Part shown: positions 35,340 through 64,000 of the stretch, one piece after another
How positions within the stretch are numbered: the first letter of the stretch is position 1
How the letters are laid out: every line of letters starts with the position of its first letter
NCBI GenBank assembly: GCA_008632985.1
Contig: QPGO01000107.1
Coordinates: 1-64,000 of the forward strand
Reading direction: 5' to 3'
DNA length: 64,000 nt
Source: Psammoneis japonica
Taxonomy: Eukaryota
Made by a program: the position numbers and the translations under genes
Notes under the pieces: generated by a model
Databases searched by the model: none
The model's input: the letters and a program-made list of their open reading frames with translations, nothing else
Told to the model about the DNA's origin: nothing

Positions 35340-35359
35340 ATTTGTCAATGTTAAGATCA

Positions 35360-38968: not shown

Positions 38969-39326
38969 TAAAGCATGAACTGGACACTCCTACCGAGCAA
39001 TAGACTTGCTTCCCAGATTTACTGTACTGTAGTTCCAGAAGCGCCGAGGCTCTTAGTGAGAGCGTTTTGTAGAAGTCGAAACGCGCGGGGGAGGCACAGA
39101 ATTGCAATGCTCTTGCGGCACTGCGAGAGGGCTTACTAGCCCACGGAGGCGGAATCTGACCACACCTCATGTGGCGTAAAGAGCTAAATCGTTTTTGTGG
39201 ATTCACAGATTTGGTTCAAGTTTCTAAGACAACTACTTCCACATACATGCAATTCTCATAGACCTCCCCGTTGGGATTGAATCCTCATTCAAATCCTCCG
39301 ATGAATTCAAGACGTTTTCTGTTTCT

Positions 39327-42862: not shown

Positions 42863-43139
42863 TGACAGAAAATTGAAGGCAAATGGCAAGAATTCAAACA
42901 ATGACTCCTTGCTGCTGTCTAAATGGCAGATGAGTCTCCGCTCAGAGACCGTTGCAGGAGCCGAAAGACATGCAAGTCGGCACAATCGGGCTGCTGTTGT
43001 TGTTCTTGTGAGCCTTGTGGCTCGAAAGCAAACTACATCGCGCGTGAACGCGCGGAACTAAAGCACACAAAACTGTGCACGGCAAACTAAACAGCGCGCG
43101 ACACTTCGCGCGCACCCAAATCCTGTTCAAATCCTGTCA
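42863..43139 (-). repeat. Copia 3' LTR (277 bp)
   Basis: Direct repeat of 49703-49980 with TG...CA termini. Confidence 0.95.
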
Positions 43140-46100
43140 CTCCCCAGTTTGCTTGAGGAGCCACAGAAACAGATTCAACTTCGGATGGAATGAAGTTCCA
43201 GAACATGAGGGGGCGGAGAAGGTCCCAGATTTGGGAGCAACCCCAATGCTTGCTGAGAATGTCAGCAGGGTTGCGGGAGCCTTCGATGAAGTGGAACTCA
43301 AGGTGGCCAGAGGCAATTGCCTCACGCACACGGTGGAACGACAGTGCGGTGTGTCGCTTGTGTAACTTGGAGTGCGGGATGGTGGCACTGTCTACAACCG
43401 ACTTGTTGTCACCGAACATGCAACTAACGTTACGGATCGGGACGCCAAGGTGGCGCAGGGTGATGCGCAGGTCGACAATCTGCTCAACACAAGTCCTTGC
43501 GGCAACAAATTCAGACCCGCAGGTCGCAGTCTCCACGGTGGCTTGTTTCTTAGAGAACCAATCAGCCGGGAATTTGTTGAGGAAGTGGAGCATTCCCATG
43601 ACAGAGCGTCCGGTGAGCATGCAATGGTGCAAGTTTGCATCGACGCAGTGGGTGGCAGTGACGAACTTGCCAAGGGGCGGTGGAGCATCCTTCAGGATCA
43701 TCTCTTCTGCTTCACCATGCACGGAATGCATCCATTCATAGGCCGGAGCAGGGAGATCCGAATGGTCGGGCTCTTCCGTGCGAACGCGGAGAGCACCGTG
43801 TCGCATCTTGGAGAGGTGCCCACAGACGCGTTTGGCACGATCCAAGTGGCCTTGACGGGGCGCAGCTCGGAAGCTAGAGAGTGACATGACGGCCGTGGTG
43901 ATGTCAATTCGACCAAGGGACACTGCCCATTGGAGTGAACCAACAAGAGACTGGAACTTGTGAATGCCATCGGGTCCCAGCAGTTCGGAAGTGTCCAGTT
44001 CGGGGTGGTCACCCTTCTCTAGAGGTGACAGGGCGTTGGTGGCAGGTTTCTCCCCAAACAGTCGGGCACAGCTGTCGACCATGCGCTCGATGTACTTGCG
44101 CGGAGACAGGCACAAGGTTCCGTCAGGTTCCCGGGAAAAGTCGCAACCCAGATGGAACTCAATGGGTCCCGCACCCTTGAGCTTGAACTTGTGCTTTTCC
44201 GTGAGAGTGTCGACGAAAGATTGAGGGTCCTTCATGGCAATGGCGAGGTCATCCACACAAACGGCAATGCATTCACAGTGGTCGCCGTTCCTGCGCATCC
44301 AAATGTCGGGTTCGGCGCGGCAGGGGAAGAAGCCTTCAGCTCGCAGGCAGTCGGCGAAGCGCTCGTGCCAGCGGAGACCGGAGCTGCGCAGTCCATGCAG
44401 TGCCTTGTGGATGACAAGGATGTGTCCTTCGAGTTTGCCGAACTGGGGTCCAGCTGCAATGTAAAGCTTCTCCTTGGTGGTGGCTTCAAGGCAGGCATTG
44501 CCAATGTCGGTGGCCCATGTCTCCAACTCGTTGAGTTCGGCCAGGAAAATCATCAGCCGAAGGCCACGGAGGGAGACTGCTCCGGAGCAGACACTGTCGA
44601 CAGGTACGTCCGTGAGGTGCCCGTCGGCTACGAGTCATGCCTTGTGGCGACCGTCGTGTTTCACGTCGCACACCAGGTGCACTCGGATCTTCTTGTGTCC
44701 CGCAGGAGGAGTGGAAGACTTGAAGGGCCCGCAGTCATGGAAGACTTCGCATTCGTCGAGTTGGTCCATCTCGAGATTAGTTGCGTCTCCCCACTTGCGG
44801 TTGCCGTTGCGTTCGTCTGGTGACATGGCGTGTTTGCAGTTCCGGGGAACTTCGCATCCACACTTGCAGCGAGGTGCAGTGCGGAAGGAGCGAAGCTTGG
44901 CTTGGTTGGCCATGCGAAACAGCTTCTTTTGGCACCTCGCGATGGTGCGGAACCGCTTCCAGCCATCCGTGTCGAGGAGTCCGTTCTCTCGTGCACAGAT
45001 GGCACAGGTGACGGGGTCATCCTTGGCGATGATGGCAAGAGGCTCGGACGTGATCTCCCCACTTTCCCATTCAAGCATGATGTTGTAGCTGGAGCCTTTC
45101 CAGGTTGGGTGGTGAGGCTTCAGAGGTCCTTCGTGTGACACGATGCGTCGAAATTTCCAAACAGTGGTGTCTTCATCTTCTTGCTCAATGTGATTCATGA
45201 TGTCATTGCAGGCAAGGACTTCCTCGCACTCGTCATTGTTGACAGAGCAGACGAACTTAGTGAGCTCGGGATTGCCGTTCACTTTCCATTCGTGGTCTTC
45301 GACGGCCTTGACGATGCGAGCTCTGTGGCGTTGTCCGTCCTCTTGTGGCTGCATGAGGAAGGTGCGTCCAATGATGTCTTGCGGATCGAAAACTGGCATC
45401 TTGGGTGTCCTGATCTCCCCATCAGGAGAGTCGACGGGGTTGTCGTCATGGCGAGATTTGATGATGGGTTCAGGTGGCTCCCCATCAGGAGGATCAAGAT
45501 GCAGGTTTCGAACGGCAGGATCGGGGGTAGCGGAGCGGACGTTGGACCGGCAGAGGATCTTCTGAGTCTCGTCAGATAGAATCTTGAAGGTCATCTGGTG
45601 GCCGACGTGCTCAGCAATGCCAACGAAGCATCCACGCAACTCACGGGATTCGGACGGCCAATCGGAGTCATCGAGGTGGAAGCACACGGGTTCCCACCAG
45701 TGAAAGCGAAGCAATGGGCTGATGTCCGGGGTGGAGCCAGTGAGAGTCTCGAGGGGCGTGCGCCAGTGGAGACGTGGGGACGCTGCATGGTTGAGCATGA
45801 AGCACACGCACATGAGCGCCAGCAGCCATGTGTGGGCGGGCGAACCAAAACGATCCATGACAGTGTTCGCCATGCACTTCACGGTCTGGCATCGACGCTC
45901 GGCAAAGTTTTGGTGTTGCTGGTGAGGCTCACTTTGCCAGCTAGAGATGAAGAGGGCGCGTAGGATCCCGAGCACTTTGTTGCTGATCTCAACTTGAGCA
46001 CGGTCTCTAATGAGTTTGGATGGGGCACCACGTTCACGGATCTGATCCTCGAGTGTGTTGACAAACTCTTTGTCCGTCTCAGTGCCGCAGACGTCAGTGA

Positions 46101-48756
46101 CGGTAGACTCGGTGCCAACAAACAGTTGGGCGCTGGTGCAACCAGAGTCGACGGCCGGGGTGTCGGCACAAACGGTGTCAGTGGCGACAGGCTCGTTGCG
46201 GCGGTGCACGTTAAGGGCGGGGTTGGGTGATTTGTAGGCTTTGCGAAGGTGTGTGCCGGCGGGCATGCGGGCGTGCTGCGTGGTGCAGTCAAAAGTACGA
46301 CGGACCGCATCGGCAGGTGGGAAGCCAAAGTGAGGCCGAAGAGACTCGAAGGGGGGGTCCTTGGGCTGTACAGTGCGCTCCGGAGGTGGAACGTCATCGC
46401 CCTGGGGGCCAATCGCATGCAGATGACACTCGTAGAACACGTCGTCGTTCGGAAGGAGGTGATCATCGAGGGCGGACGCGTGATCGGCAGACAAGGAAGC
46501 GGACATGATGGTCTCGTTGACAACGACACGATGACGGCAGTTGCCGCATTCGTCAAACAGGTTGGCAGTGGGATCGTCCTGTGGGTCAGAGATCGCGTCG
46601 CACCACTGGTCGTCGTCAGTGACAGAGTGATCGAGGACGGAAGGGTCCCATGTGTGATCACCGGTGAGGATGACATGGGGCAGGGTGTCCCATTCGGCGT
46701 CAGTGTAAGGTCGCATGGCAACACAAGGCAGGCCAGCCTTGATGTCAATGGGGGTGACACAGCCATCAGGAGTGGCAATGCGTTGCAAGCCGTTGGGCAC
46801 CTTGACAGAGCGATCGTTGACATCCTGTTTGCACCATTCAAGCTGGCCACAGGAATGGATGGTCTTGCCCTTGCCCGTGCATGCGCACTGATGGAGGATG
46901 GCAATGACGGGACCACGCTGGGTCTCAATGACGGCACCAGCGGTGACAATGGGGATGTCCACCAATTGATGATCGTCAATGCCCTGAACGTCGACTTGGC
47001 GAGAGGTGCGTGCAATGACGCGAACGTCGTCGCCAGCAATGCTGCCGTTGGCCCCACGATCGACTAGAGCGCCAGTGCGTGTGGAGCGATGAGCAGAGGC
47101 AGAGCAAATGACATTGTGGTTGTCAACGCGGCGGCAAGTGCGGCCGTTAAGTTCCATGTCATCTGCAGAAGCTGGCGGGGTAGAGGAAGCGGCGGATGGC
47201 CCCGGTCGACTGGCATTGGGGGCTTGGTTAGGAGACAACAGACGTTGCAGATCACCGGGTGGCAGTGGCTTGCGCTTGGTGAGGTGCGCCAGGATGGGAT
47301 CATCCGAAGTGGCGTCCACATGTGGAGCGGAGTCACCAGAGTCAGCAGGAGTCGTGTTGGACAAGTTGACATCACCGTCACTCCCAAGGCGTTGGTCGTG
47401 AAGGTTGGCCGTAACAGACTCATGGCAGTTGCTGGCTCGCGGGTTGCGGGGAGGTGGACGAGAATGCTCAAGGATGATCGCCTTGGAGGAATCGGGCAAC
47501 GAATCCCAGAGCCGTTGGTGGTCGGGAGGGAGACGTCTCCATTGGACACCGGTGAGGCTGGGACCGCGGGTGCAGGCAGCATTGGCTTGAAGGACGTCAA
47601 CGTCGCTGTCAATGTCGTAGAACACATCGTCGGACGGTTCCTCGGAGCAGACGTCGTGTGCGTGTGTGGCGCGTCGGGGAGCTCGAGGTGTCGTCTTGGG
47701 TTGAAACGTGCTGTCGCACTGAGCTGCCGCGGAGAGGAGCAAGCCACAGCATTGATCGCATGTGAGGCTCTTGCCACTCTGCGTACGATGCTGATCAGCT
47801 TGGTTCTTGACAGCACGGAGTTCCTCGACAGGGTGCACAGCATTCTCGAGCATGACGCGCTTCTGTCCTTCAGAGAAGTGGTCACTGGCCGGGATGAGTG
47901 CCTCGCACTTGCGCAACTGATCTTGCCAATGAAGGATGAACCCGTGGGTCGGACCTTTCCAAGTGCCATCACCAAGACGCTCGGTGGTGAGGTGCGTGAG
48001 CAGGGTGGAGGACTCGACAGATGCGTGGGTGGAGGCAAGCGCGCACTCAGACAAGGAGCGGCAGACAGTCTGTGCGTCAGAAGACCCCACATTTTCGCGA
48101 ATGAGAGCCTTGCCCTTGTCGGTGAGAAGGATGCGTTCGAAGACGGCGAACATGTGCTTTTGCTGTTCAGCAAAGAGCAGTTTGTCTTCGGGGCTGGTCG
48201 GTTTGTACGACGAGTCTAGAATGCACTCGACGTCTTGGGCACGGGCTTGTGCCACAAGTGAGGTGTGCCAAGTGTGCCACTGCTTGTCGGATTTGAGAGC
48301 CGTGAAAGTGGTGGGATCACGCTTGATGCCTCGCTTGAAGTCCCGCACCGGGTCGCGTGCCTTGGTCGGGTTGGTGACATGTGGAGGTGCAAGGGGTGAG
48401 CTGCCGATGGACACAGAAGACATGCAGTCGGGGCTGAGGCGGCAGGCAAGGAACTCGTCATGCGTGAACAAAGAGGAGTCGTTGGCAACGTCAAGACCTT
48501 TGTGTGCTTTGACAATGTGCAGACTGACCAGTGCTGCTAACATGTTCTCACAACCACGGGGCAAAGGGATCACATTGGCGCCGTTGTCGCACTCAAGCGA
48601 GTCGATTTGGGACGGCATGAACGTGGACAGTTCCTGACGCGAGTCCGTGCCGTCTTGGGCCAAAGCCAAACGAAGAGGACTCCCAGCACCTTGGGCAAGC
48701 ACGGTTCCAACCACGTGCTCGAAACCATCGGTTTGTTGCTGACGAGTGAGAACCAT
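43087..48756 (-). pseudogene. Copia gag-pol polyprotein, single frame with one internal stop, TpA-converted
   Basis: Protease LVDRGANG; integrase VATDT, RDRAQ, QNFAER; RT VKHDGRHKA*LVADG, DIGNAC, KALHGL, AVCVDDL; RNase H CVDA, GSEF, GDN, NPADILSK. The TGA at 44635-44637 is probably from CGA. Confidence 0.93.
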
Positions 48757-49702
48757 GGCAGACAAAAGTGGTGTCAGGATGATCAATTCTGGTTGGGAAG
48801 CGAAGGTGGACTCGAAACTTGGGTGAGAACAGACTTGACTTGAAACAGACTTGACTTGAAATCTTGAACTGTCTTAAAATCAGAAGTCGCCGGGCTTTGT
48901 CATCCCGTTCGTTGTCAAGTGCTAAACTTCCCATCCGGTCCGTAGAGTTGTGCCGGCACGTCCGAACCCGCAGCCAGTGGCGCTTTGGGTTGCTTGCGAG
49001 CGGAGCAGCGGGTTGCAAACCCCTGCAGGTGAGCTGACCAGAGGTGGACAAGACCCCCGAACCGTTCTTATTTTTTACATCGGTTGGATTTCCCGATCAG
49101 GCTGGCCAGTTGATGCAGGCGTCAGGCGCTGTGGACGAACGAACAAACGCGGGAAAGCACCCTCGCCCCAACGTGGGGCTGCAATCACGGCTGCTTGCTC
49201 TCACAGTCGTCCTCGTGGACCTGGTGGAACTGTGGAGCACCAGCAGTCCAGGGTAGATCAGGTGCAATGGACTCGGTGTGCTTGTAGAGTGGCAGCAAAA
49301 CCGCAGTCCGAAGAGTGGGTGCAGGTTCTTGGCCGTGAAGACATGTGTGTATGTGCACACATGTCTTCAGCGACGAAGATCCTTGAACATGTAGGGTTCT
49401 TGACCGTTAACCGATGAACAGGTATGTCAAGGGATGAGGATCAAGGACAGACTTGGATGTGACCGTTGAATGTATGTCTTCAGCGATCAAAGGCAGCACA
49501 ATCAATCCAGACATCCAGCGGTGAGGAGACTTGACGGTGACGTCAACTTCCTGCCGATGCCCTGGCATTGAATGCGCGCAGACTTGCCGATGTATGTAGA
49601 GTGTATACGGAGGTCCACGTAGAATTGAAATAGCGTCGTTGGTAAATCAACGACGACGATGGCGGTTGCTCAATGGGTTGACAATGAGCAAGACTGTCAA
49701 TC

Positions 49703-49980
49703 TGACAGAAAAATTGAAGGCAAATGGCAAGAATTCAAACAATGACTCCTTGCTGCTGTCTAAATGGCAGATGAGTCTCCGCTCAGAGACCGTTGCAGGA
49801 GCCGAAAGACGTGTAAGTCGGTATAATCGGGCTGCTGTTATTGTTCTTGTGAGCCTTGTGGCTCGAAAGCAAACTACATCGCGCGTGAACGCGCGGAACT
49901 AAAGCACACAAAACTGTGCACGGTAAACTAAACAGCGCGCGATGCTTCGCGCGCACCTAAATCCTGTTCAAATCCTGTCA
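49703..49980 (-). repeat. Copia 5' LTR (278 bp)
   Basis: Direct repeat of 42863-43139. Confidence 0.95.
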
Positions 49981-51057
49981 TCTTGAGAGAGATTTGAGCC
50001 CACACAGCCCCGAGTTGGGTGTCTTGGCTGGCAAGTTAGAAAGCATTCTTGAGCACATTTTGGGATGTGGGCAGCACTGTCACCAAGAGAGCTGTTCTGC
50101 AGAGGAAGAGGGAAACAGGCAACAACATTTTGCAAGAGCTGTTTTTGTGTCAATGGTCGGGTGGGATGGGGCAGCATCTGGACTTTGACGGAGCATTTGG
50201 TGGACAAAGCTTGAGCACAGAGAGCTGTCCACTCAAGCTCCACAAGTGGCACATTTCAAAGGTGACACCAATGTGTTCATGCATCAACATGCCTCAAGCT
50301 GCAAGTCACACAAAAAACCACCACCAACCTTTCTCAACCAACCACCATCATGGACAGAACAGGTCAAGAGGCTCGAAACAAGAGTGATTGCTTCATTGAC
50401 TCTCTTCTTGTTTCATGCATTCAAGAGCTTGTTCTTGTCCTTCTCAAATGTTTGTTGTGCATTGTTGTCTCTTTTAATTCAAGTGCAAAGAGGAGTCACT
50501 TTTCTTGTTTCTGTCTCTTGAGATGTTGTTGGTTGTTGAGTGATGCAATTTTTGTTGCTTGTCACATTTTTGGAAATGTTGGCAAACCCGATCACTGCTT
50601 GATTGTCAACCCATTTGCTGTTTTAAGTCTCCATGGCACAAAACACCATAATTCCAGAGCCCTCAATTGTTTCATCAAACGCAGTGCTTTGAAACACGTC
50701 CAACATCAACTCGACTCAGTTGAAATCCCAGTTTGTGGGCGATGAAAAATCACGAATGTCAAACAAATGGCTGCTTTCGACATCAAGATCCCCGAGTTCA
50801 ATCCAAATGTGACGGCACGCCTCACAGCTCATGGCCATGACACACACAAGCATGCCTTGTTGTTGTCATCGCGTGTGCTCGCATCGAAAATGCCGATGGA
50901 TCAAAGTTCAGGAAAAGGATGGAATGCAAATTCATTTGTGCATTCACTGGAGTGGCATTGGCGTAATGACATTCACGGCAGAAGCGATCAAAAATCCTCA
51001 CTCATCATTGACATTTCTGCATTGCTCAGAATTTGAAATCTGACCACCACCGTCAAG

Positions 51058-51175
51058 CATTTGGCTTTCTTTGTGTCGAAGTGGAAACGACACTTGACGA
51101 TTTACACCAACCATTTAGCTTTCTTTGTGTCGAAGTGGAAATGACACTTGACGATTTACACCAACCATTCAGCTT
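51058..51175. repeat. 54-bp tandem repeat (about 2.2 copies)
   Basis: GCTTTCTTTGTGTCGAAGTGGAAA(C/T)GACACTTGACGATTTACACCAACCATT twice. Confidence 0.9.
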
Positions 51176-51532
51176 ACTTTGGCTCAAAGTCAGACAATGA
51201 GATTGGGTCATGGGCTTGTCATCAACCAGCCACGAGCATGAAATCTTTACCGCAGTTCCTCCCAGCCAGATGGAAGAAGAGAAAAGGAAAAGGAAGGAAA
51301 AAACAAACATTGGTGAAGGTTTGAAAGGGTGCGCTGCAGCACCGTAGTGCATGCAGCAGTGAAGACGGACATAGACAGGCACAGACGTGCTGCGTCCTGA
51401 TGCGTTGGGCATGTGGAATTTGGTGCGAAGTGTCACACGTTTGCGTGCGCAGAAGGATGTGGATCGCCAACGGCTGGAATAAAGCAGCACACCACACAGC
51501 AGTCAGTGCAGCTCTGTCATCACGGCGCTAGA

Positions 51533-53005
51533 ATGGCGGAGGACAACATCATTGCGTCTGGCAAAGCAGAGGATGTGGCAGCTCCGGAAGTCATGGCAGA
51601 ACTCACGGGCGCCGAAGGCGCGGCGGCAGCTGCCATGACTGCACTTGGCGCCGAGGGAAGTGCCGAGGGTGTGTCCGTCGAGTCCGAACGCGCAAGGATG
51701 TCGGAGAAGCCGGCGCAGTCCCAAACTGAAAAGAGGGAGAAAGCCGTGCTGCCAGAGCCAACCTTTCAAATTTGTGGTTGGAATGAAGCACAGCAGCTGG
51801 GTCACACCGCTGAGCAGCTCCTTGAGGCCGGTTGCAAGATCGAGTTGGTGGGTGATCAGGCCACCTTTGTGAAACCGGAGGTCCTGCCTTTTTGCAGCGG
51901 CAAAAGCGAGGAGGCAGCCAAGCCCGCGGCCAAAGTGGTCACGAAAGCAACGGCGGAAGAGGAAGAAGAAGGAAAGCAATTTCCGGACCCCAACGAGCCG
52001 TCATTCGACTTGTGGGACTGGGTGTTGCGGCACGAAAAATCCGACAATTTCCAGGAGTCCATGTGCCTGATGAAGGATGCGCCAAACAATCCCGACCTCT
52101 GGTTCCCCGCGCTGGGAGAACTGGGGTGCATCAGGAGCGACCCTGAAGCCGTCGCGAATGCTCACGGCGAACACTGCAAGTGGGTGTGGAGGTGCCGCAC
52201 GGAAGTCGGTGAGAGGGGCATCCCAGACTCGACGCCGAAGAGCAACAAAGTGTTCAAGACCACCGTCGAGGCTTTCGAAGTGGGGTGGTTGCTCACACTG
52301 GTCCACCTCGTGAAGAGAGTGAGCACAGAAGTGTGCACATTTGGATGAGGTGCCGTGTCACTTCAACCTGCGTTGTTTTGCCTCGAAAAGTCCGTTCGCT
52401 CCGCAGGCCCCAAGGAGGTGGAGGTGGGCGAGCTGCGCATGTCACAACGGAGGGGCAAAGGCATTGGTTTTTTTGCTTTGCACCAGTTCCAGAAAGGCAG
52501 TGCGGTTGGAATCTACGTGGGCCCCAGGGTGCCCGGTGCGACGAGGAGCCACTCGTGGTGCGACCATGACAGCAAGTTTGGAGAAGACCACAGCATGTGC
52601 TGCTCCACCATCCGTGACAGCGAGGGCCACTGCGTCACAGTGGAGCCAAAACCGCTTGATTTTAGCGGTCCAGGGAACAAGAATTCCCATCCACTCTACC
52701 TCGGAATGCACTGTGTGAACAATGCCACCGAGTCGTTCAAGGACAAGAAGAAGATCAAGGCAAGCCAACATGCGGACAACAACTGCGAGTTCTACAACGA
52801 CGGGTGCTTGGCAGTCACGAAGCGAATCATGCCCAGGGAGGAATTTCTCTCCAGATGCAACTTGGACGAATCGGAGAAGAAGAAGAAGAAGAGGAAGGCA
52901 ATGTCGGGTGCCATGAATCGGAAGAAGAAATCGCGTCTACTCCCCAAGTTGGGGGGGAGAAGCTCTGCGTCTGGCAAAACGTTTGCCGTGCAGTGTGCTC
53001 TGTAA
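51533..53005 (+). pseudogene. SET-domain-like protein (probable Helitron cargo), one internal TGA
   Basis: ORFs 51413..52348 and 52355..53005 are in frame. C-terminal GIGFFALHQFQKGSAVGIYVG...MHCVNN...NNCEF..DG....TKRIMPREEFLSRC follows SET motif order. Confidence 0.6.
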
Positions 53006-55085: not shown

Positions 55086-55379
55086 TGACGGAAGTGTTGT
55101 CGCGTTGTTTTTGTCTCCGCGGAGGGAGGATCATCCCACGGCAATCTCAGCACGAGTTCTCGCGTAGAAGTGCGTTGCGTGCCATGCCAGCTCGTGCGTT
55201 TGAATTGCACGGACACACAAGTGCGGCAACGATGAGAAGCAGGCCGAGATTCAAAACAAATTTTATCGCCCAAAGGCGTCTCATTGTTTCAACGCATCCA
55301 CATGTCTGTTTAAAATGACTTCATGCATCGCTCCATGCGCAGGTAGAGGTGGCACGCCGCGTTTGAAAATTTCGCGCGC

Positions 55380-56366
55380 ATGGAGGGCGCGACGGCACTT
55401 TTACGCATTCTGCGCACGTCACAGTTTGGTTTGGAAACGCGACGTCTGGTCAAACCCGCTGCAAGCAAGGTTGATGTTGCCACAAGGTTGGATGCGATGA
55501 ACCATCGTTGCAGAAGTGTGAGGGAGTTTTATCTTCAAACGGCTCCGGACTCCGTGTTCCAGAGCAGGCGTGTCTCCGGAGACGGAAGCAGATCTTCGCA
55601 CGGCGGCGAAGTTGGCTTCGCTTTGAGCAGCGAAGTGTTTTTGAACGAATGCCTTCTTGGCGTGAATCACACCTGCGATGCATCTGTCGACATGGGCGGG
55701 GGAGTTGCCGGACCCAGCATCGGGCTCAAGTTACTTCGTCGCCGTTGCACCGTGGTGAGCATCGAGGCCGACCACGATCATCACCAAGAGGCTGTACGTT
55801 GGGCTCATTGTGCTGGCCTTCACTCGAACGGCGGGTTAGAGTTGATCAACAAGTCATTCTTGGACAAGAGGCTGGCTCCTTTGTGGAAAAAGAAAGGACT
55901 CAAGGTGTTCTTCAACAACTGCAACTCCCGCATGGTCGACGACAAGAACACACAGCAGAAGGCAGAGGCGATGCTTTCGAAGTTGTGTCGTGCTGGGACC
56001 GTGGTGGTGGCGCTAGATCCGCTGTTCGCGTCGCACGCAGGAGAGTGGATGTGCGAGTCCTTCACGGCGGATTGCCATGATGGCGACTTTTTGTGGCACA
56101 GCGGAGACGTGAAACATCTCGTCTTCCACAAGCACACCAAGAAAGAGGAGACTTCTCAGTCAACCAGCCAGCACGTGCGACATCCCACTCCGACACACTT
56201 GGAACGGAAGCATTTGCCCATCGCGAAATGGCCAATTTTACTTAAGAACTCAACTGAACTGTTTTTTTGCCATCACTGTGCTGGACGTCACATGCCAGTT
56301 GCTCCACTCAATTCGCCATTGCTTCGCGGTGACGACAAGTTGTCGTCGGAGATGGTGCACACTTGA
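55380..56366 (+). pseudogene. Class I methyltransferase, DOT1-like (degenerate)
   Basis: GGE...D..VDMGGGVA (motif I), VVSIE, SFLD, KVFFNN, L..LCRAGTVVVALDP resemble the DOT1 motif series (GE, DLGSG, GIE, F.NN, G..IVS). Confidence 0.55.
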
Positions 56367-56455
56367 AGAGACAGAGGAAAGCTGAGTTGCAATCGACACT
56401 TGGTTTGCCAAACATTTACAAATTCACACTGCACCGGCAAAAAAAAAAAAACAAC

Positions 56456-57328
56456 TCAGTCTTCGTCACTGTCCTGAAGCACCAAGTCGTCATCGACGTT
56501 CAGGTCAACTTCGCAGTTGAGCTCGACATCATCGTTGGCCTCTTCTCCAGCTTCTTCTGCCGGAGCTCCAATGAGACGACAGAGTTCCACAGGCAACGAC
56601 CCCTCGTAGAAGCAACTGTGAAGCAAGTTCTTGTTTTGGGCGCACCAACCGATGTGAAACTGACCACCTTCCTTCTGAAGCTCGGCAAGCGCCGCCTCGT
56701 TGCCGATCACTTCGGACCAAACAGCATCCTTCATCCAGAAGAAGTCGTCTTCAACGAAGACCTCGGTGTTGTTCTCAGGGTCATCGTTGAGCTGCTTCGC
56801 AATGCACTTCCCAAGGCCGCGCACTTTAGCATCGGTTGGGACTTCTTCGAGGAAGATGAAGAAGAGACGCACGGCGCAGTTCTTGGCGTTCGTCTGCAAC
56901 TCGCCTTCATGAACCCACCTGCCAGCATGAGGGTGGAATCTGACTTGAACCGCCCACGGAGTCCTGCTGCGAAGGTTGTCAAACAGAACCTTCTCCGACC
57001 AAACATTGGCCAAAAGGGGATTCTTGGCTTGGAGACAAAAAACGACGCCTTTCTTGTGGCCGACAGTGACGGTGGCGCAGCGCAGGAGGGCGTCCTTGTC
57101 GGAATGGCTGCCATTGTCAGAACCAGCGGATTTGGAAAGCTTGAACCCGTGCTTGGCAAGGTGGTCTTCCGGTTTAAGGTCGTCGTTGGTCAAGCCGTTG
57201 GTCTTGCGGGGCGGACTTAGTTTCTTCAACAGAGCATCAGAAAACTTCGTCTTTGCCTTCTTCTGTTTGGTTTCGGCGACTTTGGCTTTCGCAGCCGGGG
57301 AGGTCGTTGTGTTTCTTTTGCGTGCCAT
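56456..57328 (-). pseudogene. TpA-converted ORF of unknown function, basic N-terminus and acidic tail
   Basis: MARKRNTTTSP... about 290 codons with a single Tyr. Confidence 0.4.
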
Positions 57329-57870
57329 CGAATCAGTCGGAGAGAAATTGTGGGAACAAAAAGTGCGATCGTTCAGAAGTGCCAAGAAAGACCCAGCAGA
57401 GCTGTGCACATCATGCCAAGGAGAACTGGCAACGTCAGCAACTAGATCCAAACACGTCAAACTGCAACAAGGTGACCTTCCAGGTGTCAGCACTTGCAAG
57501 TGGTGTGTGGACTCAATTTGAACAAAACAGGTGCAAGGATCAGAGCACGCAAAGTCGCACTGAGTTCACTGAAAATGCGCAAAATCACGCGCAATTCCGT
57601 CCGTGCTTCATGTGTGTTTCAGCCGTTGCTGCCGCGCGGCCATCGCTCACGAAATCTAGTCGCCAAACGGTCGACGCCATCGCTGTCACTGCTGTGCCGG
57701 CAGTCAGCTAAGGTGGGCCCATCACCCATTTGGAGGATTCGCGCGCACTTTGGAAACACCAATGACATCAATCGCATTGTCGTTGCCACACGACTGACTC
57801 AACTGCCCCGCCACTCGTTAAAGCGTGATTCCACGGAATTTGCGCAAAGCTGCGCCCACCACCAAGATTG

Positions 57871-57975
57871 CCGAAACAACTTGAACAAGATCCGAATCTT
57901 GCCCCATGGAATGTTCAGAGCAGATGGTCGAAACAACTTGAACAAGATCCAGATCTCATCCCATGGGATGTTCAA
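57871..57975. repeat. 57-bp tandem duplication
   Basis: CGAAACAACTTGAACAAGATCC....CCCATGG.ATGTTCA twice. Confidence 0.8.
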
Positions 57976-58159
57976 CGTCGACGAAACTGAGTGGGATGTC
58001 GTGCGTCTGGTGCAAAGAAGGACGTGGGAGGAACGCACACGTCACTCTTCCGTCAAGGTGAAAGAGGCACACTTTCGTCTCACTTTTTTGTGACAGAACC
58101 TTTGCGCAAGAAAAACGAAAAGCATCCAACTGCGGTGATTGGGCCACACTGATCACAGT

Positions 58160-58810
58160 TCTCAGTTCTCACAGTGACCTGGCAACGCAGGTTGTGAGAT
58201 GACGCACAAGCTCAGCTGCGGTGGCTGGACGACACCAGTCGCAGCTCTCACAGAGACCTGATCGCACAGGTTGTGAGAACACGACACAACGCTGCGGTGA
58301 TCGGATGGCACCGACGCAGTTCATCAAGCAACTGATTCACTTGGCTGCGGTGACTGGACGACACCAGTCGCAGCTCTCACAGTGACCTGATTGCACAGGT
58401 TGTGAGCAAACAACACAGCGCTGCACCTCGCAATGCAGGTTGTGAGACAACGCACAAGCTCAGCTGCGGTGACTGGACGACACCAGTCGCAGCTCTCACA
58501 GAGACCTGATCGCACAGGTTGTGAGAACACGACACAACGCTGCAGTGATCGGGCAGCACCGACGCAGTTCGTCAAGCAACCAATTGGCTCGGCTGCGGTG
58601 ACTGGACAGCACCAGTCGCAGTGCTCACAGCGACCTGATTGCACAGGTTGTGAGAAGACGACACAGCGCTGCGGTGAACGGATGGCACCAACGCGGTTCG
58701 TTGATCAACTGGACAGAACCACTGCGGTGACTGGACGACACCAGTCGCAGTGCTGCAGGTGGTGAGAAAACACACATCACTGTGGTGATTGGATGGCACC
58801 GATCGCAGCT
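58160..58810. repeat. Array of about five 119-129-bp hairpin-containing units upstream of RepHel
   Basis: Core CTGCGGTGACTGGACGACACCAGTCGCAG at about 58215, 58344, 58463, 58592 and 58721. Confidence 0.88.
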
Positions 58811-58895
58811 TCACGGTGATCGCACTGAAAAAACAACTGTTTTTGCTGAGTGACTTCTTGAAATTTGTTGAGTCAAAGTGCCAGCTTAAATTAAA

Positions 58896-61800
58896 ATGGA
58901 CGAGGCCAACTCCCGTGTTTGTGGTGCAATCAATGGAAAGTTTGAGATGCTTTGTCTGCATGGAGATGGAGAATTTAGACCACACGTGTGTTCAGTCTGT
59001 GACGTTCTGCTGAAACCTAGAGAAGTTTGCTGCTTGCCGCTCGAAACATTGGAATCAGCAAGAAACTCACTCACCCCTTCAGACTGGAACAGCGCATCTG
59101 ATCGTCTCAAGTCCTGCCACACTGTAGAGCATGAAGATGCTGATTGGATCAAAGACCTGCTGCTTTCTCCCCGTGCCCAACACGTGGCACAGGAAGACAG
59201 ACGACGCGTCGACGGATTCACTTGCTGCAGCGAATGCCGAAGAAGCCTGGGAAGAGCCGTTGTGCCAATGCACGCGACAGCAAACAACTGCTGTTTCGGT
59301 GCCCCGCCGCACGAACTGTTGTCTCCAACCAAAGTAGAATTGGCAATGCTCACACCAGTGAAAACATGTGGATGCTGCTTCAGTTGCCTTGGTGGCAAAC
59401 AGAAGAAGCTTCAGGGAAGTCTGATGTGCTACAAAGTCAAGATGCAACGCATCGTAAGAACTGTTGTGCACTTCGACGTGCTGAATTTACATCAGAGTGT
59501 GATTGCACTGATGACTGGAAAGATGACTCCGGAGCAAAGACAACTTGTGCGTTCAAAGAACAGAATTAGGATGCACTGCATGCCAAGGGCAATGGAATGG
59601 CTGTTGCACCACAACCAAGAGTGGGTGTGCCAACAGATGAATCTAGATGAAGTCAGGCGCAATCTGCGGAATCCCGCACTTGTTGACAGCACCAGCGAAG
59701 AAGAAGGAGAAAATGCGAACATTGAGACCTCAGAGTCATTTCATGTTTGCTTTCCTGATGGAACCATGTCTCCTGCGACCGGTGGTCAGCGCAACCTGGG
59801 CTGCTTCAAAGATCTTGTGCATGAAGCTGCTGCCAACGGATTTGATTTAGAGGTGCAAGCGCAGTTGTCCAAAGAATCTGCGAGTGATTTCAAAGGCAAC
59901 AACTTCATTGGCGCGTGTCTGCTGCAGTTTCCTTTTGGCAGAGGAGGAATCAATGAGACGAGAATGAAGAAAGACGGAAGTCTCACAGATGGCACCAACC
60001 TTGCACACCATGCCGACCACTTGGCATGGATTTCCCAGCCTCACTTCCATGAGCAGCTCTTCGTGTTAATGTGCTGCAACTTGACAATGAAGCAAAGGAT
60101 GCTGCAGAGCGCAGGGTGGAAAGTCAGGGACAAGAATCAGGCTGCACAGTTTGCAAACGAACTGACAGTGGACGATGTGGACAGAGCTGTTTGTGATCAC
60201 AACTTGGGCGAGAGAAGAGATTGTGGACTCGGGCACCACTTTTTGCGTGCACTCGACGTTGCATCTGCGTCTCTGCCACACAGCAACGAAGCAGCAAAGA
60301 AAATGAGGAGAAACGCCAAAACTTGTCAGCATCATTTTGGCCAGGGTGGCATTTTCTTAACCGTCAGTCCGGACGATGCAAATTCGTTTCTTGTGCAACT
60401 GCACTCGGGTGTCATCCTGGACCCAAACGAAGACGTGACACAACTGACGGACGAAATTCTTGCTGGCAGGGCTGAGCAACGCAATGAACTGCGTCTGAAG
60501 TTTCCCGGTCTGACAGCCTTTGCATTCGAGTGCTTGTTTGACATTGCAACAGAAGAGGCAGTGGGTTGGGATCTGAGTGCTGACCAACCAAGAGAAAACT
60601 TTAACTTCTACATTGGCAGGCCAGCCGCATTTTTAGCCACAGTCAAGGAGCAGGGACGTCCAACAGCACACGGACACATGCAGATCTGGTTCGCATCGAT
60701 CAACAATGCAAGAGAGAAACTGCATTTGCCAACAAGACAGATCCGACGTGAAGGTGCTGAGTGCCTTGCCAACATGGTTCAGAAGATCTGCAGCACGGAG
60801 CTAATCTGCAGTGAGGACTTCAGCACCAACGCGTTGCGTGAAGCATTCGATCATGACTGCACAGTGCCAAAAATGTGTCGCACCTCTCCAAAAGCAGCAG
60901 ACGACCAACAGCTGAGAAGCCTGAGGCACAAAGACGGCCAGCAGTCGAAGAACGGAATGTTTGCTTGTTGTCGTCACTGCACCAAGTGCTGGACAAACGT
61001 CGAGTTTGTAGAAAGCTTTTTACAGTCACGGCACCGTGCACCTGGCCTGACTCACTGTCCAGACAACCATGCAAAGCAACTAAAAGCAATGTGTGTACAG
61101 TGCCAGCGAAGTGGTCCGCAAGGGACAACAGAGGCACACACACCGGACGCAGCTTACAACCATCACATGCACGTTACGAAGTCATGTTTTCCCAAATGCG
61201 CAGAGTCACGTAAAATGCGTAAAAAAACCCCACACGAGGAACTGGACACGCAGTCAAGGAAAAGGAAACGAGAGGAGCTCAAACCAGGTGACTGCCGTCA
61301 CAGGCAACCAGCTGCTTCGTGTCCAAATGATTTGGCAAGGAACGCAGATGACACTCAGATAAAGTGGTTCAGCTGGGATGGAACTTTTGCGCATCGGTGC
61401 ATGAAGGAAGTTGTTCCGAAGAGGAGAAAGTGCAATGCTTTTCAAAACGTGTCGTGCCCTGCAACAAGCAGATCAAAACTGACATGCAACACAAACATTG
61501 CTTCATTGATGCCTGGACCGTCCACTCAATGCACGATTGAGTGCATCCTAAAAGATGCCCAGAAAGATGACACTGCATCGTACGACGAAGTGCTTCGAAC
61601 TACGAACAGGACAGCGACGGAATTACAGAAACACGCATCTGATGCATCGGAAGCAATCAGACGTCTCACATGGGGTGCTCACTCGCACAACAAGACGAGC
61701 GTCATTGGACCACCACTTGCGTCTTACACAAGAAGGAACGGAAGCCGTTTCATCGAATCTCATTTGACCGCATGGGGCCCCTTGAAAGACATTGTCAGCA

Positions 61801-64000
61801 CACTAGAAAGAGATGAAGTGTCTGCGACTGCAGCCCATTTTGGCGATGCACCGTTCTTCCAATGCCAGGCCTTGCACTGCCCATGTCGTCCAACAGCACT
61901 GGAGAATCTCAGTCCGTTTGCGTTTTTTAGTGAGTGCGAAGTTCTTTGCAACACAAGGAAAAATGAACACGGCATGATGATGTTCGACAACAGAGCGCAC
62001 GGGCACCCATCTCACAATTCAATGAAGAATGAGTTTCTTCAAGGTGTCAGACAGCGACAGCAACCGCGATTGTTGAAAGCACTTCAGTGTGATTTTCCTG
62101 ATGCAGCCAAGTTTGGCAGTTGCCTTGCAGATCTGCAGCAACCAACAACACCAGACAAAGAATTGCACTGCAAGTTGGCATTGGCCTTGTTTGCGCCTTG
62201 CAGAACAATGATGGAACTCAAACCAACAACCCATGCACACCTGCGTGAATTCCAACTCTCCGCAGCAGCCGGTGTTGTTGCAGAGGAAAACTTGAACTTC
62301 TTGCAGAACCTGCAGGATGCTAAGTCCAACTGCCTTCATCTCAAAAGCACATCTGACGATCTGCAAAGAAAGACGGAGCAATTTAGACCTGCTGACGTTG
62401 CGTTTGACTGTCACAAAAGTGACAAGGAAGAAGGTCTTTCAGGTGCCGTTCAGGGTCAACCACTGGATGCACTCTTGGAAGAAATGGCAGAGCAGCCAGA
62501 AGACGATGACATTGGGTTGAGCGACCAAGCAGTTGTTCCTGCACATTTGAGCGGCAAACGTGCAAGACAGAAAGGTTCACACATGGGTGGCTGCAAATGC
62601 TTGGCAGACATGCACACTGACCCACCAAACGAGGAAAGCCAGGTCAATGAACGACAACTTTTTGAGAATCTAGAGGGCGGCGATGACACCGATGAGGAAG
62701 ACCAGAATGAAGGAGTGCAACAACACATCCACAGCAGACCTCTGTCAAGAGACGACATTGTTCAAGCGATGCTGACTAGAACGCAAAGAACAAGAAGGTC
62801 GTTTGAGGACATGACAGGTTTGGAAGAACACGTCGATGTACGTCAAGCAAACGGATCTGCAGCAAGTGTCGTAGACTGGGCTGGGAAAGCAAGACTGGAC
62901 AGGCAACAGCAGCGTGCCTTTGAAATTCTAGCAGGAACCTTTGTGCTCACTTGCTGCCAAGACGCTCTTCAAGACGAGATGTCACGCAATGGACTCAACA
63001 GGAGAAACAGCAGACACAAATTCGCAACAAACCTTCGCCGATTGAAGAAACTCGTGGAAGTGCAAAGACGCAGAACGTTGCAACTTGTGTGTTTTTTACA
63101 TGGTGCAGGTGGAAGTGGCAAATCAACCACAGTGGACCTCGTCGTGGAATGCGGAAGAGAGCATTGCTCGCTTGTTGAGCAGCCGTTCACAACAAGCACA
63201 ATCAGAGTGACTGCACTGACCGGAGTGGCTGCGACTGTTCTCAAAGGGGGCACAATCCACCGAGTTGCACACCTTGTGAGAAGAAAGCAAATGGCCGAAG
63301 AGCAAATTGAAGCATGGTCAGACACGAGACTTTTGGTGGCAGATGAGATTTCTTTTGCAAGCAAGAGAGAACTGGAAAAACTCCATGAGAATTCAACAGC
63401 ATTGAAGAGCGAACCAAGCAAGCCGTGCGGTGGCATCAACATTGTTTTCGCAGGTGACCTCAGGCAACTAGAACCAGTCGGAAAAGGAGTGAAACCACTG
63501 TGCAAAGATGCATGTCCCGAGTTTCACGAGTGGATCAACTGCTGCACAGAACTTCGTGGTGCGCGCAGGTTCAAAGACGATCCATCATGGGGAAAACTGC
63601 TCAAGAGATTCCGCACTGGTGAGATTGCAGTTGACGATGTAGAGCACATCAACGAACGAGCAGTTCAGAACGAAGATGATCTGCCCAGTGACCTCCGCCA
63701 TGCCACGTGCGCAAATAAGGACAGAGATGCAATCAACACTGGCCTGTTCGAAAAAAGAGCAGAAACACTGCATGGAAGAGATGGAGACGTCCTTGACTCA
63801 ATGTTGATTTTCAGTGACGACTTGCAGGTGCAGAATGGCACGAGACTCTGCCAACCATTTCTGGTTTGCAACAGCTTCTGGAACAACTGTGGTGAAGGAG
63901 ACGTTGTCATGCAATCAGGAAGAATGGATCCAGTCTTGTGAATTTGCAGAAGATGCAGAGTCATGACACCTTTCAACGAAAATGCAGCAAACGGTCAAGC
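58896..64000 (+). mobile_element. Helitron Rep/helicase (HUH endonuclease plus PIF1 helicase), TpA-converted, runs off the window
   Basis: FPFGRGG, FLTVSPDD, EQGR..AHGHMQIW (HUH), CNTNI...CTIECILK (YxxxY position), GAGGSGKS, DEIS, GGINIVFAGDLRQLEPV, RFKDD. The TGA at 63939-63941 is probably secondary. 5 Tyr in 1681 aa. Confidence 0.9.

Follow-up and report, generated by a model that had tools for sequence, protein, structure and literature searches.

Tyrosine loss in transposon-rich blocks of a probable diatom contig points to TpA hypermutation of inserted DNA

Results and discussion

TpA-poor blocks alternate with ordinary DNA

The window (the whole 64-kb stretch of DNA that was analysed) contains three blocks in which the dinucleotide TpA is depleted far beyond chance, at 2750 to 14880 (D1), 17500 to 23560 (D2) and 41555 to 64000, the window end (D3). 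Their borders were drawn from TA positions and counts per 250 bp, together with binned observed/expected ratios (rho) in the case of D2. In the TA-poor 2-kb bins rho(TA) is 0.02-0.30, and the observed/expected ratios of CpA and TpG are raised to 1.28-1.91 and 1.19-1.88, respectively. D1 reaches 0.02-0.15 (2-kb bins, 4001-14000), and every 2-kb bin of 42001-64000 in D3 lies at 0.09-0.30, with a GC content that rises to 0.49-0.595. The host-gene block between D2 and D3 (23560 to 41555) has ordinary TpA (rho 0.42-0.71; 2-kb bins, 24001-42000) and serves as an internal control; at its boundary with D3, near 41.5 kb, the number of TA per 250 bp falls from 7-8 to 0-3. Block borders and element ends do not match; the left border of D2, for example, lies about 0.5 kb within a transposase-like element, away from the element end.

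Proteins encoded in these blocks are poor in tyrosine and rich in cysteine and histidine, as the initial annotation of this DNA had proposed. An open reading frame (ORF) screen of the window gave Tyr/(Cys + His) ratios of 0-0.17 for 44 ORFs in TA-poor blocks versus 0.08-1.0 (median 0.45) for 14 ORFs outside them, most of which lie within the host-gene block. The 13 D1 ORFs that reach 180 amino acids or more all have ratios of 0-0.06, and a Pfam search of ten long D1 ORFs returned no match to a recognisable protein family.

Mobile elements and a duplicated host gene

D3 holds a Ty1/copia-type long terminal repeat (LTR) retrotransposon (42863 to 49980, reverse strand; Pfam RVT_2, 3.2e-18), approximately 9 kb of TA-poor DNA without annotation, and a Helitron ORF. 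The copia LTRs (42863-43139 and 49703-49980; TG...CA ends) form a self-BLAST pair (278 bp, 96.4% identical), flanked by a perfect 5-bp target-site duplication, TCTTG (42858-42862 and 49981-49985). The polyprotein frame (43090 to 48873, reverse strand) runs for 1928 codons with one in-frame TGA, at 44635-44637, and has 9 Tyr, 69 Cys and 92 His in 1928 amino acids; tyrosine makes up a median of 3.83% (range 2.86-4.52%) of 120 homologues, from a set of 757 of which the closest is 70% identical. The Helitron RepHel ORF (58890 to 63941, forward strand; Pfam DUF6570, Helitron_like_N and PIF1) encodes 1683 amino acids with 5 Tyr, in agreement with the 5 in 1681 counted earlier. We found 46 homologues, and in the 35 used for column analysis and for the tyrosine range, tyrosine content is 2.8-4.7%.

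A transposase-like ORF of 748 amino acids (17355 to 19601, forward strand) is identified solely by its Pfam match to DUF7869 (6.3e-20; 2229 homologues) and is accompanied by inverted repeats at 17014-17070 and 19735-20158. The initial annotation had called it 'Sola-like', with 2 Tyr in 745 amino acids, and had placed it within 43087 to 63941; the tyrosine count stands, and the location does not.

D2 also spans a TA-poor duplicate of a host gene. The reference copy (25444 to 26787, reverse strand), of normal composition, belongs to the UAA/PAPS-transporter family (its homologues carry Pfam PF08449), and its best named match is from Coscinodiscus wailesii (55%), with Skeletonema, Cyclotella, Stephanodiscus and Thalassiosira next. 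These homologues of a single host gene are the basis on which a diatom origin of the contig is considered likely. The duplicate (20178 to 21933) consists of two blocks, 20178-21088 and 21649-21933, which are 86-87% identical to 25444-26336 and 26452-26732.

Conserved tyrosines are replaced and reading frames stay open

We scored alignment columns as conserved for tyrosine when at least 70% of homologues carry it. In copia, 47 such columns read Tyr in 4 cases, Cys in 28, His in 10, Phe in 4 and Trp in 1; in the Helitron, 22 columns read Tyr in 3, Cys in 12, His in 4 and Phe in 3; and the seven DUF7869 columns kept none (Cys 3, His 4). Pooled over these three unrelated families, 7 of 76 conserved tyrosines are kept, with 43 Cys, 18 His, 7 Phe and 1 Trp in place of the others. 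Other residues are largely retained in the same alignments (77-100% in copia; 75-100% for most residues in the Helitron, with lower values for Ile, 6/17, Thr, 11/19, and Val, 12/19).

The individual motif changes noted initially are all present in the translations. In the copia reverse transcriptase (RT), YVDD reads CVDD, GNAY reads GNAC and KALYGL reads KALHGL, each at a column that is Tyr in 60 of 60 homologues, and TYGSE reads TCGSE, at a column that is Tyr in 58 of 60. The Helitron Rep YxxxY reads CTIEC, so that both catalytic tyrosines (amino acids 881 and 885) are Cys, at positions where both ends are Tyr in 35 of 35 homologues. Relatives thus carry tyrosine, and not the Cys or His found here, at these sites.

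Tyrosine is erased because it is the sole amino acid for which TA is obligatory in the codons (TAT and TAC). The proposed conversion of TAY to TGY or CAY is borne out by the homologue columns, the gene duplicate, the LTR pair and the ORF screen; the suggestion that transposase tyrosine codons are themselves the target needs widening, because the TpA dinucleotide is struck in any frame and in non-coding DNA, including the duplicated host-gene fragment and unannotated DNA. A change of TA to CA or TG cannot yield TAA, TAG or a new in-frame TGA, and it removes TAA and TAG, so long frames survive in dead genes. Erasure of TAG and of many TAA stops, claimed at the outset, is visible in the six-frame counts over 42001-64000 (TAA 116, TAG 117, TGA 878). 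The lone in-frame TGA of copia stands where all 60 homologues have Arg, in keeping with the suggested origin of internal stops from CGA, and the surplus of TGA has a further, direct origin in the conversion of TAA to TGA. Long ORFs do persist, but the accompanying claim of spurious ORFs in all six frames was overstated, since stops in other frames are still frequent (25.3 versus 35.6 per 1000 codons). Dead transposon genes therefore look intact, the gene-annotation hazard to which the initial annotation had drawn attention.

Direction and timing of the changes

The two copies of the transporter gene establish the direction of change. The 43 TA of the normal copy are read in the duplicate as TA (2), CA (21), TG (18) and GA (2), and the remaining 15 dinucleotides are 60-95% unchanged; because the normal copy keeps TA where the duplicate has CA or TG at 39 of 43 sites, the change ran from TA to CA/TG. 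CG is 64% unchanged, with 11 read as CA and 4 as TG, and CpG observed/expected falls to 0.12-0.53 in some 2-kb bins of the window. This CpG decay is a separate, weaker process beside the loss of TA: the interior of the young copia element has almost normal CpG (0.88-0.96) yet TpA of 0.13-0.18, which lets the two processes be told apart, with TA loss by far the quicker.

The copia LTRs establish the timing. Over 278 bp they differ by nine substitutions and one indel. At six of the substitutions one LTR has TA and the other CA or TG, two make up a single site with CA versus TG, and one is CG versus CA. LTRs are identical at insertion and eight of the nine differences are at TA sites, so the TA changes postdate integration. 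The 5' LTR and leader (49.0-50.0 kb) retain 26 TA per kb, and the interior 6-10 per kb.

We give almost no credence to selection, in which these families would be functional and would have evolved away from TA, perhaps as protection from a nuclease that cuts at TA or to keep their RNA stable. TpA is mildly low in most genomes, and the host genes here are themselves at 0.42-0.71, but selection of this kind does not account for the replacement of catalytic and invariant tyrosines, for tyrosine contents above 2.7% in all 120 copia and 46 Helitron relatives, for the loss of 41 of 43 TA from a duplicate whose functional host copy kept them, or for LTRs that diverged at TA sites after insertion.

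Sequence context and the RNA-editing alternative

Residual TA depends on its neighbours. The ratio of NTAN frequency in TA-poor to normal DNA is 0 for ATAT (none left), 0.024 for ATAC, 0.041 for CTAT, 0.089 for GTAC, 0.37 for TTAA and 0.39 for CTAG; by the base 3' of the A it is 0.038 for T, 0.128 for C, 0.209 for G and 0.249 for A, a preference derived from 4-mer counts that presupposes elements which began with host-like 4-mer frequencies. In the paired copies, the 3'-neighbour preference was not significant (11 versus 9 informative sites). At lost tyrosine columns Cys exceeds His (43:18; binomial p = 0.002), an excess that local context explains only in part; the host-gene duplicate is without such a strand bias (CA 21, TG 18).

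The excess of Tyr-to-Cys, that is, of sense-strand A to G, is what might be expected of RNA editing followed by copying back, in which ADAR-like A-to-I hyperediting of double-stranded RNA is fixed by reverse transcription and integration, and copia does pass through an RNA intermediate. ADARs favour a 3' G, unlike the order T > C > G or A seen here. LTRs copied from one template nevertheless differ at TA sites, which places the changes after integration, and the changes reach the Helitron, the DUF7869 element, the gene duplicate and unannotated DNA to the same degree, on both strands. We therefore consider this route very improbable, even though ADARs, too, favour a U immediately 5' of the A that is read as G, as the Discussion of a preprint on Bigelowiella natans points out (Mettrop et al. 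2026, bioRxiv 10.64898/2026.01.13.699255).

A model of TpA hypermutation and its chemistry

The data are likely to reflect a DNA-level, post-insertion, block-restricted hypermutation of TpA to CpA/TpG in silenced transposon-rich stretches; this confidence attaches to the process, with the enzyme excluded. Once an element has integrated, the A of a TA step on either strand would come to be read as G, giving TG, or CA if the other strand is struck. Hypermutation goes nearly to saturation inside a block and spares neighbouring genes; it favours TA with T on its 3' side, next C, and last G or A, and ATAT is lost completely. The resulting wholesale change of Tyr to Cys or His destroys the catalytic tyrosines of RT (YVDD) and Helitron Rep (YxxxY) and leaves the transposon proteins dead. 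The TA specificity, the direction, the timing after insertion, the reach over DNA of any kind, the block limits and the effects on proteins come directly from the sequence comparisons, and the chemistry and the targeting are inferred. What marks a block as a target is probably its chromatin state or small RNA, more than the duplication of a sequence.

For the chemistry, we give about an even chance to conversion of adenine to inosine in DNA by an ADAT2/TadA-type polynucleotide adenosine deaminase that requires a 5' T. The same block-restricted process could instead act on thymine, a T of TpA that is enzymatically modified in silenced DNA (by hydroxylation or otherwise) mispairing with G to give T to C, with A to G arising on the other strand. 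A>G and T>C are inseparable in double-stranded sequence, CA and TG each make up a large share of the products (21 and 18 in the gene duplicate), and the best context, ATAT, is self-complementary, all of which would suit thymine chemistry. In dinoflagellates, 5-hydroxymethyluracil occurs in DNA with a preference for TpA and TpC, but this base pairs with A and is only weakly mutagenic, and we know of no thymine-modifying system in diatoms. In the B. natans system the sole candidate proposed is an ADAT2-like adenosine deaminase, put forward there as a hypothesis and not as a test. Thymine chemistry is thus doubtful, though not negligible.

Comparison with known systems

The mutational phenomenon itself has already been described in the chlorarachniophyte B. 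natans, where (bioRxiv 10.64898/2026.01.13.699255) integrated viruses show localised TpA-to-CpA/TpG hypermutation, the same changes arise de novo in mutation-accumulation lines, and TpA-depleted coding sequences are enriched in reverse transcriptase and DDE endonuclease domains. Common to that system and ours are the TpA target, the CA/TG products on both strands, the increase in GC and a reach limited to mobile or foreign DNA, the remaining genome being spared. The host there is a rhizarian and here a probable diatom (a stramenopile); the targets there are giant-virus and virophage inserts and here transposons and a duplicated gene fragment; depletion here is near saturation (rho(TA) 0.02-0.3), compared with 0.45 in the B. 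natans NCLDV region; and events there were caught de novo, whereas here the process is read from sequence differences. Diatom occurrence and the protein-level consequences are absent from the preprint text, in which the terms tyrosine, stop codon, open reading, diatom and stramenopile do not appear, and our literature search found no report of TpA hypermutation in diatoms or of its tyrosine and open-frame consequences.

Repeat-induced point mutation (RIP), known from Neurospora and other fungi, is alike in producing defence-like transitions at one dinucleotide in transposons, with a ratio signature. It is opposite in sense, changing CpA to TpA (C to T), enriching AT and creating many stops, whereas here TpA is lost, GC rises and the process cannot make stops; RIP also mutates both copies of a duplication, whereas here one gene copy is saturated and the other untouched. 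Animal ADAR hyperediting and APOBEC3 are likewise directed at viral or mobile nucleic acid and leave clusters of deaminase-type transitions whose 5' neighbour is fixed, but they act on RNA or reverse-transcription intermediates before integration, in contrast to the integrated chromosomal DNA of all kinds affected here, and APOBEC gives C to T, unlike the A>G/T>C at TA. Decay of methylated CpG, the second and weaker process in the window, shares the excess of CpA and TpG in silenced repeats; it cannot remove TpA.

Related contigs and the possibility of artefact

Contigs of four sequencing runs (X1-X4) cover the stretch; all four were made from a single sample, from which the assembly probably also came, and are not independent of it. 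Over 41001-61000, X1 yields 19739 contigs. Transitions dominate its differences from the window overwhelmingly (A>G 170, G>A 161, C>T 153, T>C 148; each transversion 5-26). Among 40 of 762 differences listed for other copies, 7 have TA elsewhere and CA/TG in the window and 4 the reverse.

Modified bases cause systematic miscalls on some long-read platforms, so a modification in transposon chromatin might make TA be called as TG or CA, and the platform behind the assembly and these single-sample runs is not on record. We consider such a sequencing or assembly artefact unlikely as the cause. The effect is near complete and ends abruptly against normal DNA within a single contig; every TA has one definite product, CA or TG, that varies between LTRs and between copies; thousands of separately assembled contigs match (5187 of the 19739 from X1 are at least 99% alike); and a metagenome contig from other studies has the same pattern. 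In B. natans, these same changes appeared as de novo mutations in Illumina data.

The metagenome contig (L001), an environmental sequence unrelated to the window, carries the signature locally: across a DUF7869 ORF poor in tyrosine, rho(TA) is 0.13-0.25, it stands at 0.86-0.92 for the next 2 kb, and then it is 0.07.

TpA depletion is confined to blocks that carry mobile DNA

Dinucleotide counts in 2-kb bins reveal that two kinds of DNA alternate along the window. The observed/expected ratio of TpA, rho(TA), is 0.02-0.15 at 4001-14000, 0.07-0.12 at 18001-24000 and 0.09-0.30 at 42001-64000, against 0.42-0.71 in the ordinary-gene bins at 24001-42000; in the TA-poor bins CpA and TpG stand at 1.28-1.91 and 1.19-1.88 (observed/expected). 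TA counts per 250 bp place the limits of the TA-poor blocks, which we call D1, D2 and D3, at about 2.75, 14.9, 17.5, 23.6 and 41.6 kb, and GC content reaches 0.49-0.595 in D3, the last of them. The three transposable elements described below sit in TA-poor blocks, and the 18-kb host-gene block between D2 and D3 stays normal. Element ends and block limits do not coincide: D2 starts about 0.5 kb inside one element (encoding a DUF7869 protein) and then extends across the adjoining gene fragment.

The element at 42863-49980 (minus strand) is classified as a predicted Ty1/copia LTR retrotransposon from its 278-bp LTRs with TG...CA ends, a perfect 5-bp target site duplication (TSD; TCTTG), an RVT_2 match (3.2e-18) and 757 homologues (best 70% identity), the full-length ones aligning over 97% of the query segment with 59-70% identity. 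The RepHel ORF at 58890-63941 (plus strand) is a putative Helitron member by descent, as judged from its Helitron_like_N and PIF1 domains (it also has DUF6570). The third element, outside the interval covered by the initial annotation, which had called its product 'Sola-like', contains an ORF of 748 aa at 17355-19601 (plus strand) with DUF7869 as its sole Pfam match, and has inverted repeats at 17014-17070 and 19735-20158. Several copies of a palindromic motif, roughly 16-31 nt long (GGAGCAAATCTCCACC with its complement), lie at the right end of this element (19964-20165), and one copy lies at its left end (17014-17039). The six-frame Pfam search of the approximately 9-kb interval between the copia element and the Helitron (50001-58900) found no credible family (one chance-level match, E = 0.052), and none of the 10 long ORFs in D1 had a Pfam match.

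TpA sites were converted to CpA or TpG in place

The direction of change can be read from a gene duplicate. Self-BLAST identifies 20178-21088 and 21649-21933, in D2, as a duplicate (86-87% identical) of a transporter gene 5 kb away in the host-gene block (25444-26732), and we compared the two copies over these two blocks (1,170 aligned bases), leaving out the spacer (identity is 80% with the unalignable spacer included). Only 2 of the 43 TA sites in the normal copy are still TA in the duplicate; the others read CA (21), TG (18) or GA (2), so that 39 of 41 altered sites went to CA or TG. TA is thus unchanged in 5% of cases versus 60-95% for the other 15 dinucleotides. The normal copy, whose product is a conserved protein, gives the ancestral state, so the direction is from TA to CA or TG. 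The duplicate may be a captured or transduplicated fragment. Its start lies 20 bp beyond the DUF7869 element's final inverted-repeat arm (20158-20178).

CpG decay is a second, weaker process: in the same comparison 64% of CG sites are unchanged, with 11 reading CA and 4 TG. The interior of the copia element has near-normal CpG (0.88-0.96) and a TpA of only 0.13-0.18, from which it follows that TA loss is much faster than CpG decay. Some TA-poor bins (10001-14000, 22001-24000 and 42001-44000) are strongly low in CpG (observed/expected 0.12-0.53), and the composition suggests that older TA-poor blocks also went through methylation-type CpG decay.

The timing of the changes can be judged from the LTRs of the copia element, as the two LTRs of a retrotransposon are identical at integration. 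They now differ by nine substitutions and one indel, and eight of the nine substitutions are at TA sites: in six, the copy at 49703-49980 has TA where the other LTR has CA (five) or TG (one), two more form a single site that reads CA in one LTR and TG in the other, and the ninth is CG versus CA. At least 11 TA were present in the LTR at insertion, of which one LTR lost seven and the other one (8 of 22 TA copies altered, versus 1 non-TA substitution in 278 bp). The LTR differences at TA sites, together with the intact TSD, indicate that a normal copia element integrated and was then mutated in place as DNA. Adenosine editing of ADAR type, fixed by retrotransposition, would act before integration, leave both LTRs sharing the edits and exempt DNA-only elements; here the LTRs differ at TA sites, and the Helitron and the DUF7869 transposase (DNA transposons) are hit equally. 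The LTR comparison rules out RNA editing before integration as the main source. Other copies from the same sample (contig runs X1-X4) depart from the window almost solely by transitions; by context, 40 of 762 variant rows comprise 11 differences of TA versus CA or TG (either way round), 12 of CpG type, 10 further transitions and 7 transversions.

Two further explanations were considered and rejected. GC-biased gene conversion would not be specific to TA, and an alternative genetic code does not account for a change that affects non-coding DNA and both strands.

Conserved tyrosines are replaced while reading frames stay open

The initial annotation had proposed that tyrosine codons of the transposases were erased (TAY to TGY or CAY) with frames remaining open. 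We examined this at conserved columns (at least 70% agreement among homologues) in three alignments, using the first 60 listed homologues longer than 1,700 aa for copia, all 35 homologues longer than 1,500 aa among P0242-P0283 for the Helitron, and the 43 homologues of 650-900 aa among the top 57 for DUF7869. Of 47 conserved Tyr columns in copia, 4 are kept and the rest read Cys (28), His (10), Phe (4) or Trp (1); of 22 in the Helitron, 3 are kept, with 12 Cys, 4 His, 3 Phe and no Trp; and none of the 7 in DUF7869 is kept (3 Cys, 4 His, no Phe or Trp). Replaced conserved tyrosines thus became Cys or His in 61 of 69 columns over the three families. Other residue types are largely retained, each at 77-100% in copia and in 101 of 109 non-Tyr conserved columns of the DUF7869 protein; Ile is also low in the Helitron (6 of 17 kept, with 6 replaced by Val and 3 by Thr), which fits the TA in ATA codons and at T|A junctions between codons.

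The individual motifs read as originally described. In copia, YVDD, GNAY, KALYGL and TYGSE appear as CVDD, GNAC, KALHGL and TCGSE at columns that are Tyr in 60 of 60 homologues (58 of 60 for TYGSE), and the Rep motif of the Helitron reads CTIEC where both tyrosines are Tyr in 35 of 35. Since both catalytic tyrosines read Cys, RepHel would be a dead copy. Low tyrosine content is not a family trait, in that none of 120 copia and 46 Helitron homologues falls below 1.5% Tyr; this homologue content serves as the intact-relative baseline, a scan of genome contigs with P0117 having found no intact copia relative. Overall, the initial observation is confirmed and its interpretation is supported, with the refinements given here.

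TAA and TAG are impossible products of TA to CA or TG, and an in-frame TGA can arise only from TAA, itself a stop; the process therefore makes no new stop, and an open frame stays open under any load of hits. The suggestion that residual TGA stops derive from CGA holds for the one in-frame stop of copia, a TGA where 60 of 60 homologues have Arg. In six frames, 42001-64000 has 116 TAA, 117 TAG and 878 TGA (25.3 stops per 1,000 codons), versus 297, 324 and 660 (35.6 per 1,000 codons) in the host-gene block. The 40.6 kb of TA-poor DNA contain 44 stop-to-stop ORFs of 180 aa or more, many of which overlap genuine frames on one strand or the other; the remaining 23.4 kb contain 14. The proposed screen by the ratio Tyr/(Cys+His) works inside the window, with values of 0-0.17 in the 44 TA-poor ORFs versus 0.08-1.0 (median 0.45) in the 14 others, and provides a cheap means of marking affected genomes and metagenome contigs (Tyr-poor, Cys/His-rich ORFs with a ratio below about 0.2). 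The annotation hazard is practical: hypermutated elements retain frames of 1,400-1,700 codons plus overlapping ORFs, which gene callers will call as proteins. Dating by LTR divergence would likewise overstate the age of such elements unless TA sites are masked.

Flanking-base preference, strand and element ends

Residual TA sites are unevenly distributed over their flanking bases. Presupposing host-like starting 4-mer frequencies of the elements, the ratio of residual to normal NTAN is 0 for ATAT (none left), 0.024 for ATAC/GTAT, 0.089 for GTAC and 0.37-0.39 for TTAA and CTAG; grouped by the base 3' of A, it is 0.038 for T, 0.128 for C, 0.209 for G and 0.249 for A. A paired comparison with the gene duplicate gave no significant 3'-neighbor effect (11 versus 9 informative sites; 17 better, 14 worse, 8 ties). 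The order TAT > TAC > TAG ~ TAA, with ATAT fully erased, is a specificity that can be checked against candidate deaminases.

At replaced tyrosine columns Cys exceeds His by 43 to 18 (p = 0.002), an excess that the context rule explains in part, since a pyrimidine always follows the sense-strand A of TAY. The ratio is still 20:9 where a pyrimidine is offered on both strands, and when sites are divided by preceding base (20:9 versus 20:5) the difference lies in the expected direction only; the gene duplicate exhibits no strand bias (21:18). A sense-strand preference of the hypermutation is suggested by these counts but not established.

The 5' ends of two elements are less TA-depleted, and promoter-proximal DNA may be spared. 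The copia 5' LTR and leader (49000-50040) keep 26 TA per kb versus 6-10 in the interior, and the left end and inverted repeat of the DUF7869 element (17014-17500) have 15-20 TA per 250 bp versus 0-4 in the body.

The signature in other contigs

One cluster (P0359), at 0.49% Tyr and 9.6% Cys+His, is an outlier among 150 DUF7869-family representatives. In its two metagenome contigs, L001 (1-6024) and L002 (1-4206), rho(TA) is 0.13-0.25 over the DUF7869 ORF and 0.86-0.95 over the next 2 kb, and falls again to 0.07 in the last kilobase of L001; this pattern places the block-wise signature in at least one other organism. No Pfam family was found for the ORF at 2907-4142 in the TA-normal part of L001.

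These contigs also bear on whether modified bases in the source DNA could have produced the signature as a sequencing artefact. Runs X1-X4 are contigs of one sample, and the sequencing platform is not on record, which leaves that explanation some room; however, each site has a definite, copy-specific CA or TG outcome, block borders are sharp, contigs match, and an independent environmental contig carries the same signature, so that we regard an artefact as very improbable.

The copia family (42335-50338) is hugely abundant in the source sample, with a summed contig depth of 68,000-130,000 versus about 1,500-6,300 in most other bins. In all, 19,739 contigs match 41001-61000 at 85-100% likeness, and copia was assembled even in three very small runs.

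Relation to known systems and possible mechanism

Fungal repeat-induced point mutation (RIP) changes C to T at CpA, makes TpA, enriches AT and creates many stops. Here, in contrast, TpA is destroyed, GC rises to 0.49-0.595, and TAA and TAG are depleted. RIP also mutates both copies of a duplicate, whereas 25444-26732 keeps its 43 TA and only 20178-21933 is mutated; with one gene copy saturated and the other untouched, the mechanism is not of the RIP repeat-induced type. The process works as a mirror image of fungal RIP, yet behaves differently from RIP in both of these comparisons.

A much closer counterpart is Bigelowiella natans, in which two integrated viral regions are reported to mutate at approximately 1,000 times the rate of the remaining genome; nearly all changes are A to G or T to C, every one falls on TpA, and TpA-depleted coding sequences are enriched for reverse transcriptase and DDE domains (bioRxiv 10.64898/2026.01.13.699255). 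The window matches every sequence-testable feature of that account (A:T to G:C transitions, TpA on either strand, mobile DNA only), and we conclude that the same kind of system, first described in 2026, operates here on different targets and in another lineage. For ongoing mutation, seen as de novo events in B. natans, the window offers indirect evidence, in the LTR changes at TA sites and in the TA-site differences between copies in the sample. Relative to the preprint, the host lineage, the transposon and gene-duplicate targets, the near saturation, the flanking-base preference, the LTR proof of action after insertion, and the tyrosine and open-frame consequences are new. The text of the preprint contains none of the terms tyrosine, stop codon, open reading, diatom or stramenopile (bioRxiv 10.64898/2026.01.13.699255), our literature search found no report of TpA-directed hypermutation for diatoms, and a study of diatom copia elements (Maumus et al. 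2009, PMC2806351) has no mention of dinucleotide, hypermut-, point mutation, RIP or degenerat-. The lineage is indicated by the host transporter gene (25675-26778), whose best named homologue is from Coscinodiscus wailesii (55% identity), followed by Skeletonema, Cyclotella, Stephanodiscus and Thalassiosira (39-49%). This one gene points to an ochrophyte host, most likely a diatom, rather than to Bigelowiella; a protein-atlas comparison of a host helicase was taxonomically uninformative.

For B. natans, the proposed enzyme is an ADAT2-like DNA adenosine deaminase (bioRxiv 10.64898/2026.01.13.699255). For the present system, we give adenine deamination in DNA roughly an even chance of being the chemistry, the main alternative being a thymine-directed reaction. 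ADAT/TadA enzymes naturally act on tRNA position A34, which always follows U33; this would give an enzyme of this family a built-in requirement for a 5' T. Targeting is probably by chromatin state or small RNA.

TpA-directed, GC-increasing hypermutation was first reported in 2026, for viral inserts in one chlorarachniophyte; its near saturation on transposons of a probable diatom, and its occurrence on an unrelated environmental contig, suggest a widespread eukaryotic genome defense mirroring fungal RIP. A bolder reading, which we hold tentatively and consider rather unlikely with all of its parts taken together, is that a TpA-specific DNA adenine-deamination defense is an old genome immunity shared across the SAR supergroup and possibly wider, that chromatin state or small RNA directs it at any silenced DNA, that it works fast enough for a transposon to be saturated shortly after insertion, and that it is biased toward the sense strand, which would imply action on transcription-exposed single-stranded DNA. 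If this were true, the missense-only logic (tyrosines killed, stops never made) would be a general and so far unrecognized annotation problem, with long 'intact-looking' dead genes in algal annotations and marine metagenomes.

Other repeats in the window

A short, very high-copy repeat at 53007-53673, where depth in run X1 spikes to 82,904, is 66% similar to a D1 stretch at 13450-13809, and diverged tandem repeats, 75-85% identical and offset by about 130-380 bp, occupy 58177-58800, directly upstream of the Helitron ORF. The host-gene block has a single N at 27712, inside an ORF, and a perfect-register 224-bp tandem duplication (98.7% identity) at 28930-29379, downstream of a putative porphobilinogen-synthase-like ORF (28346-28891).
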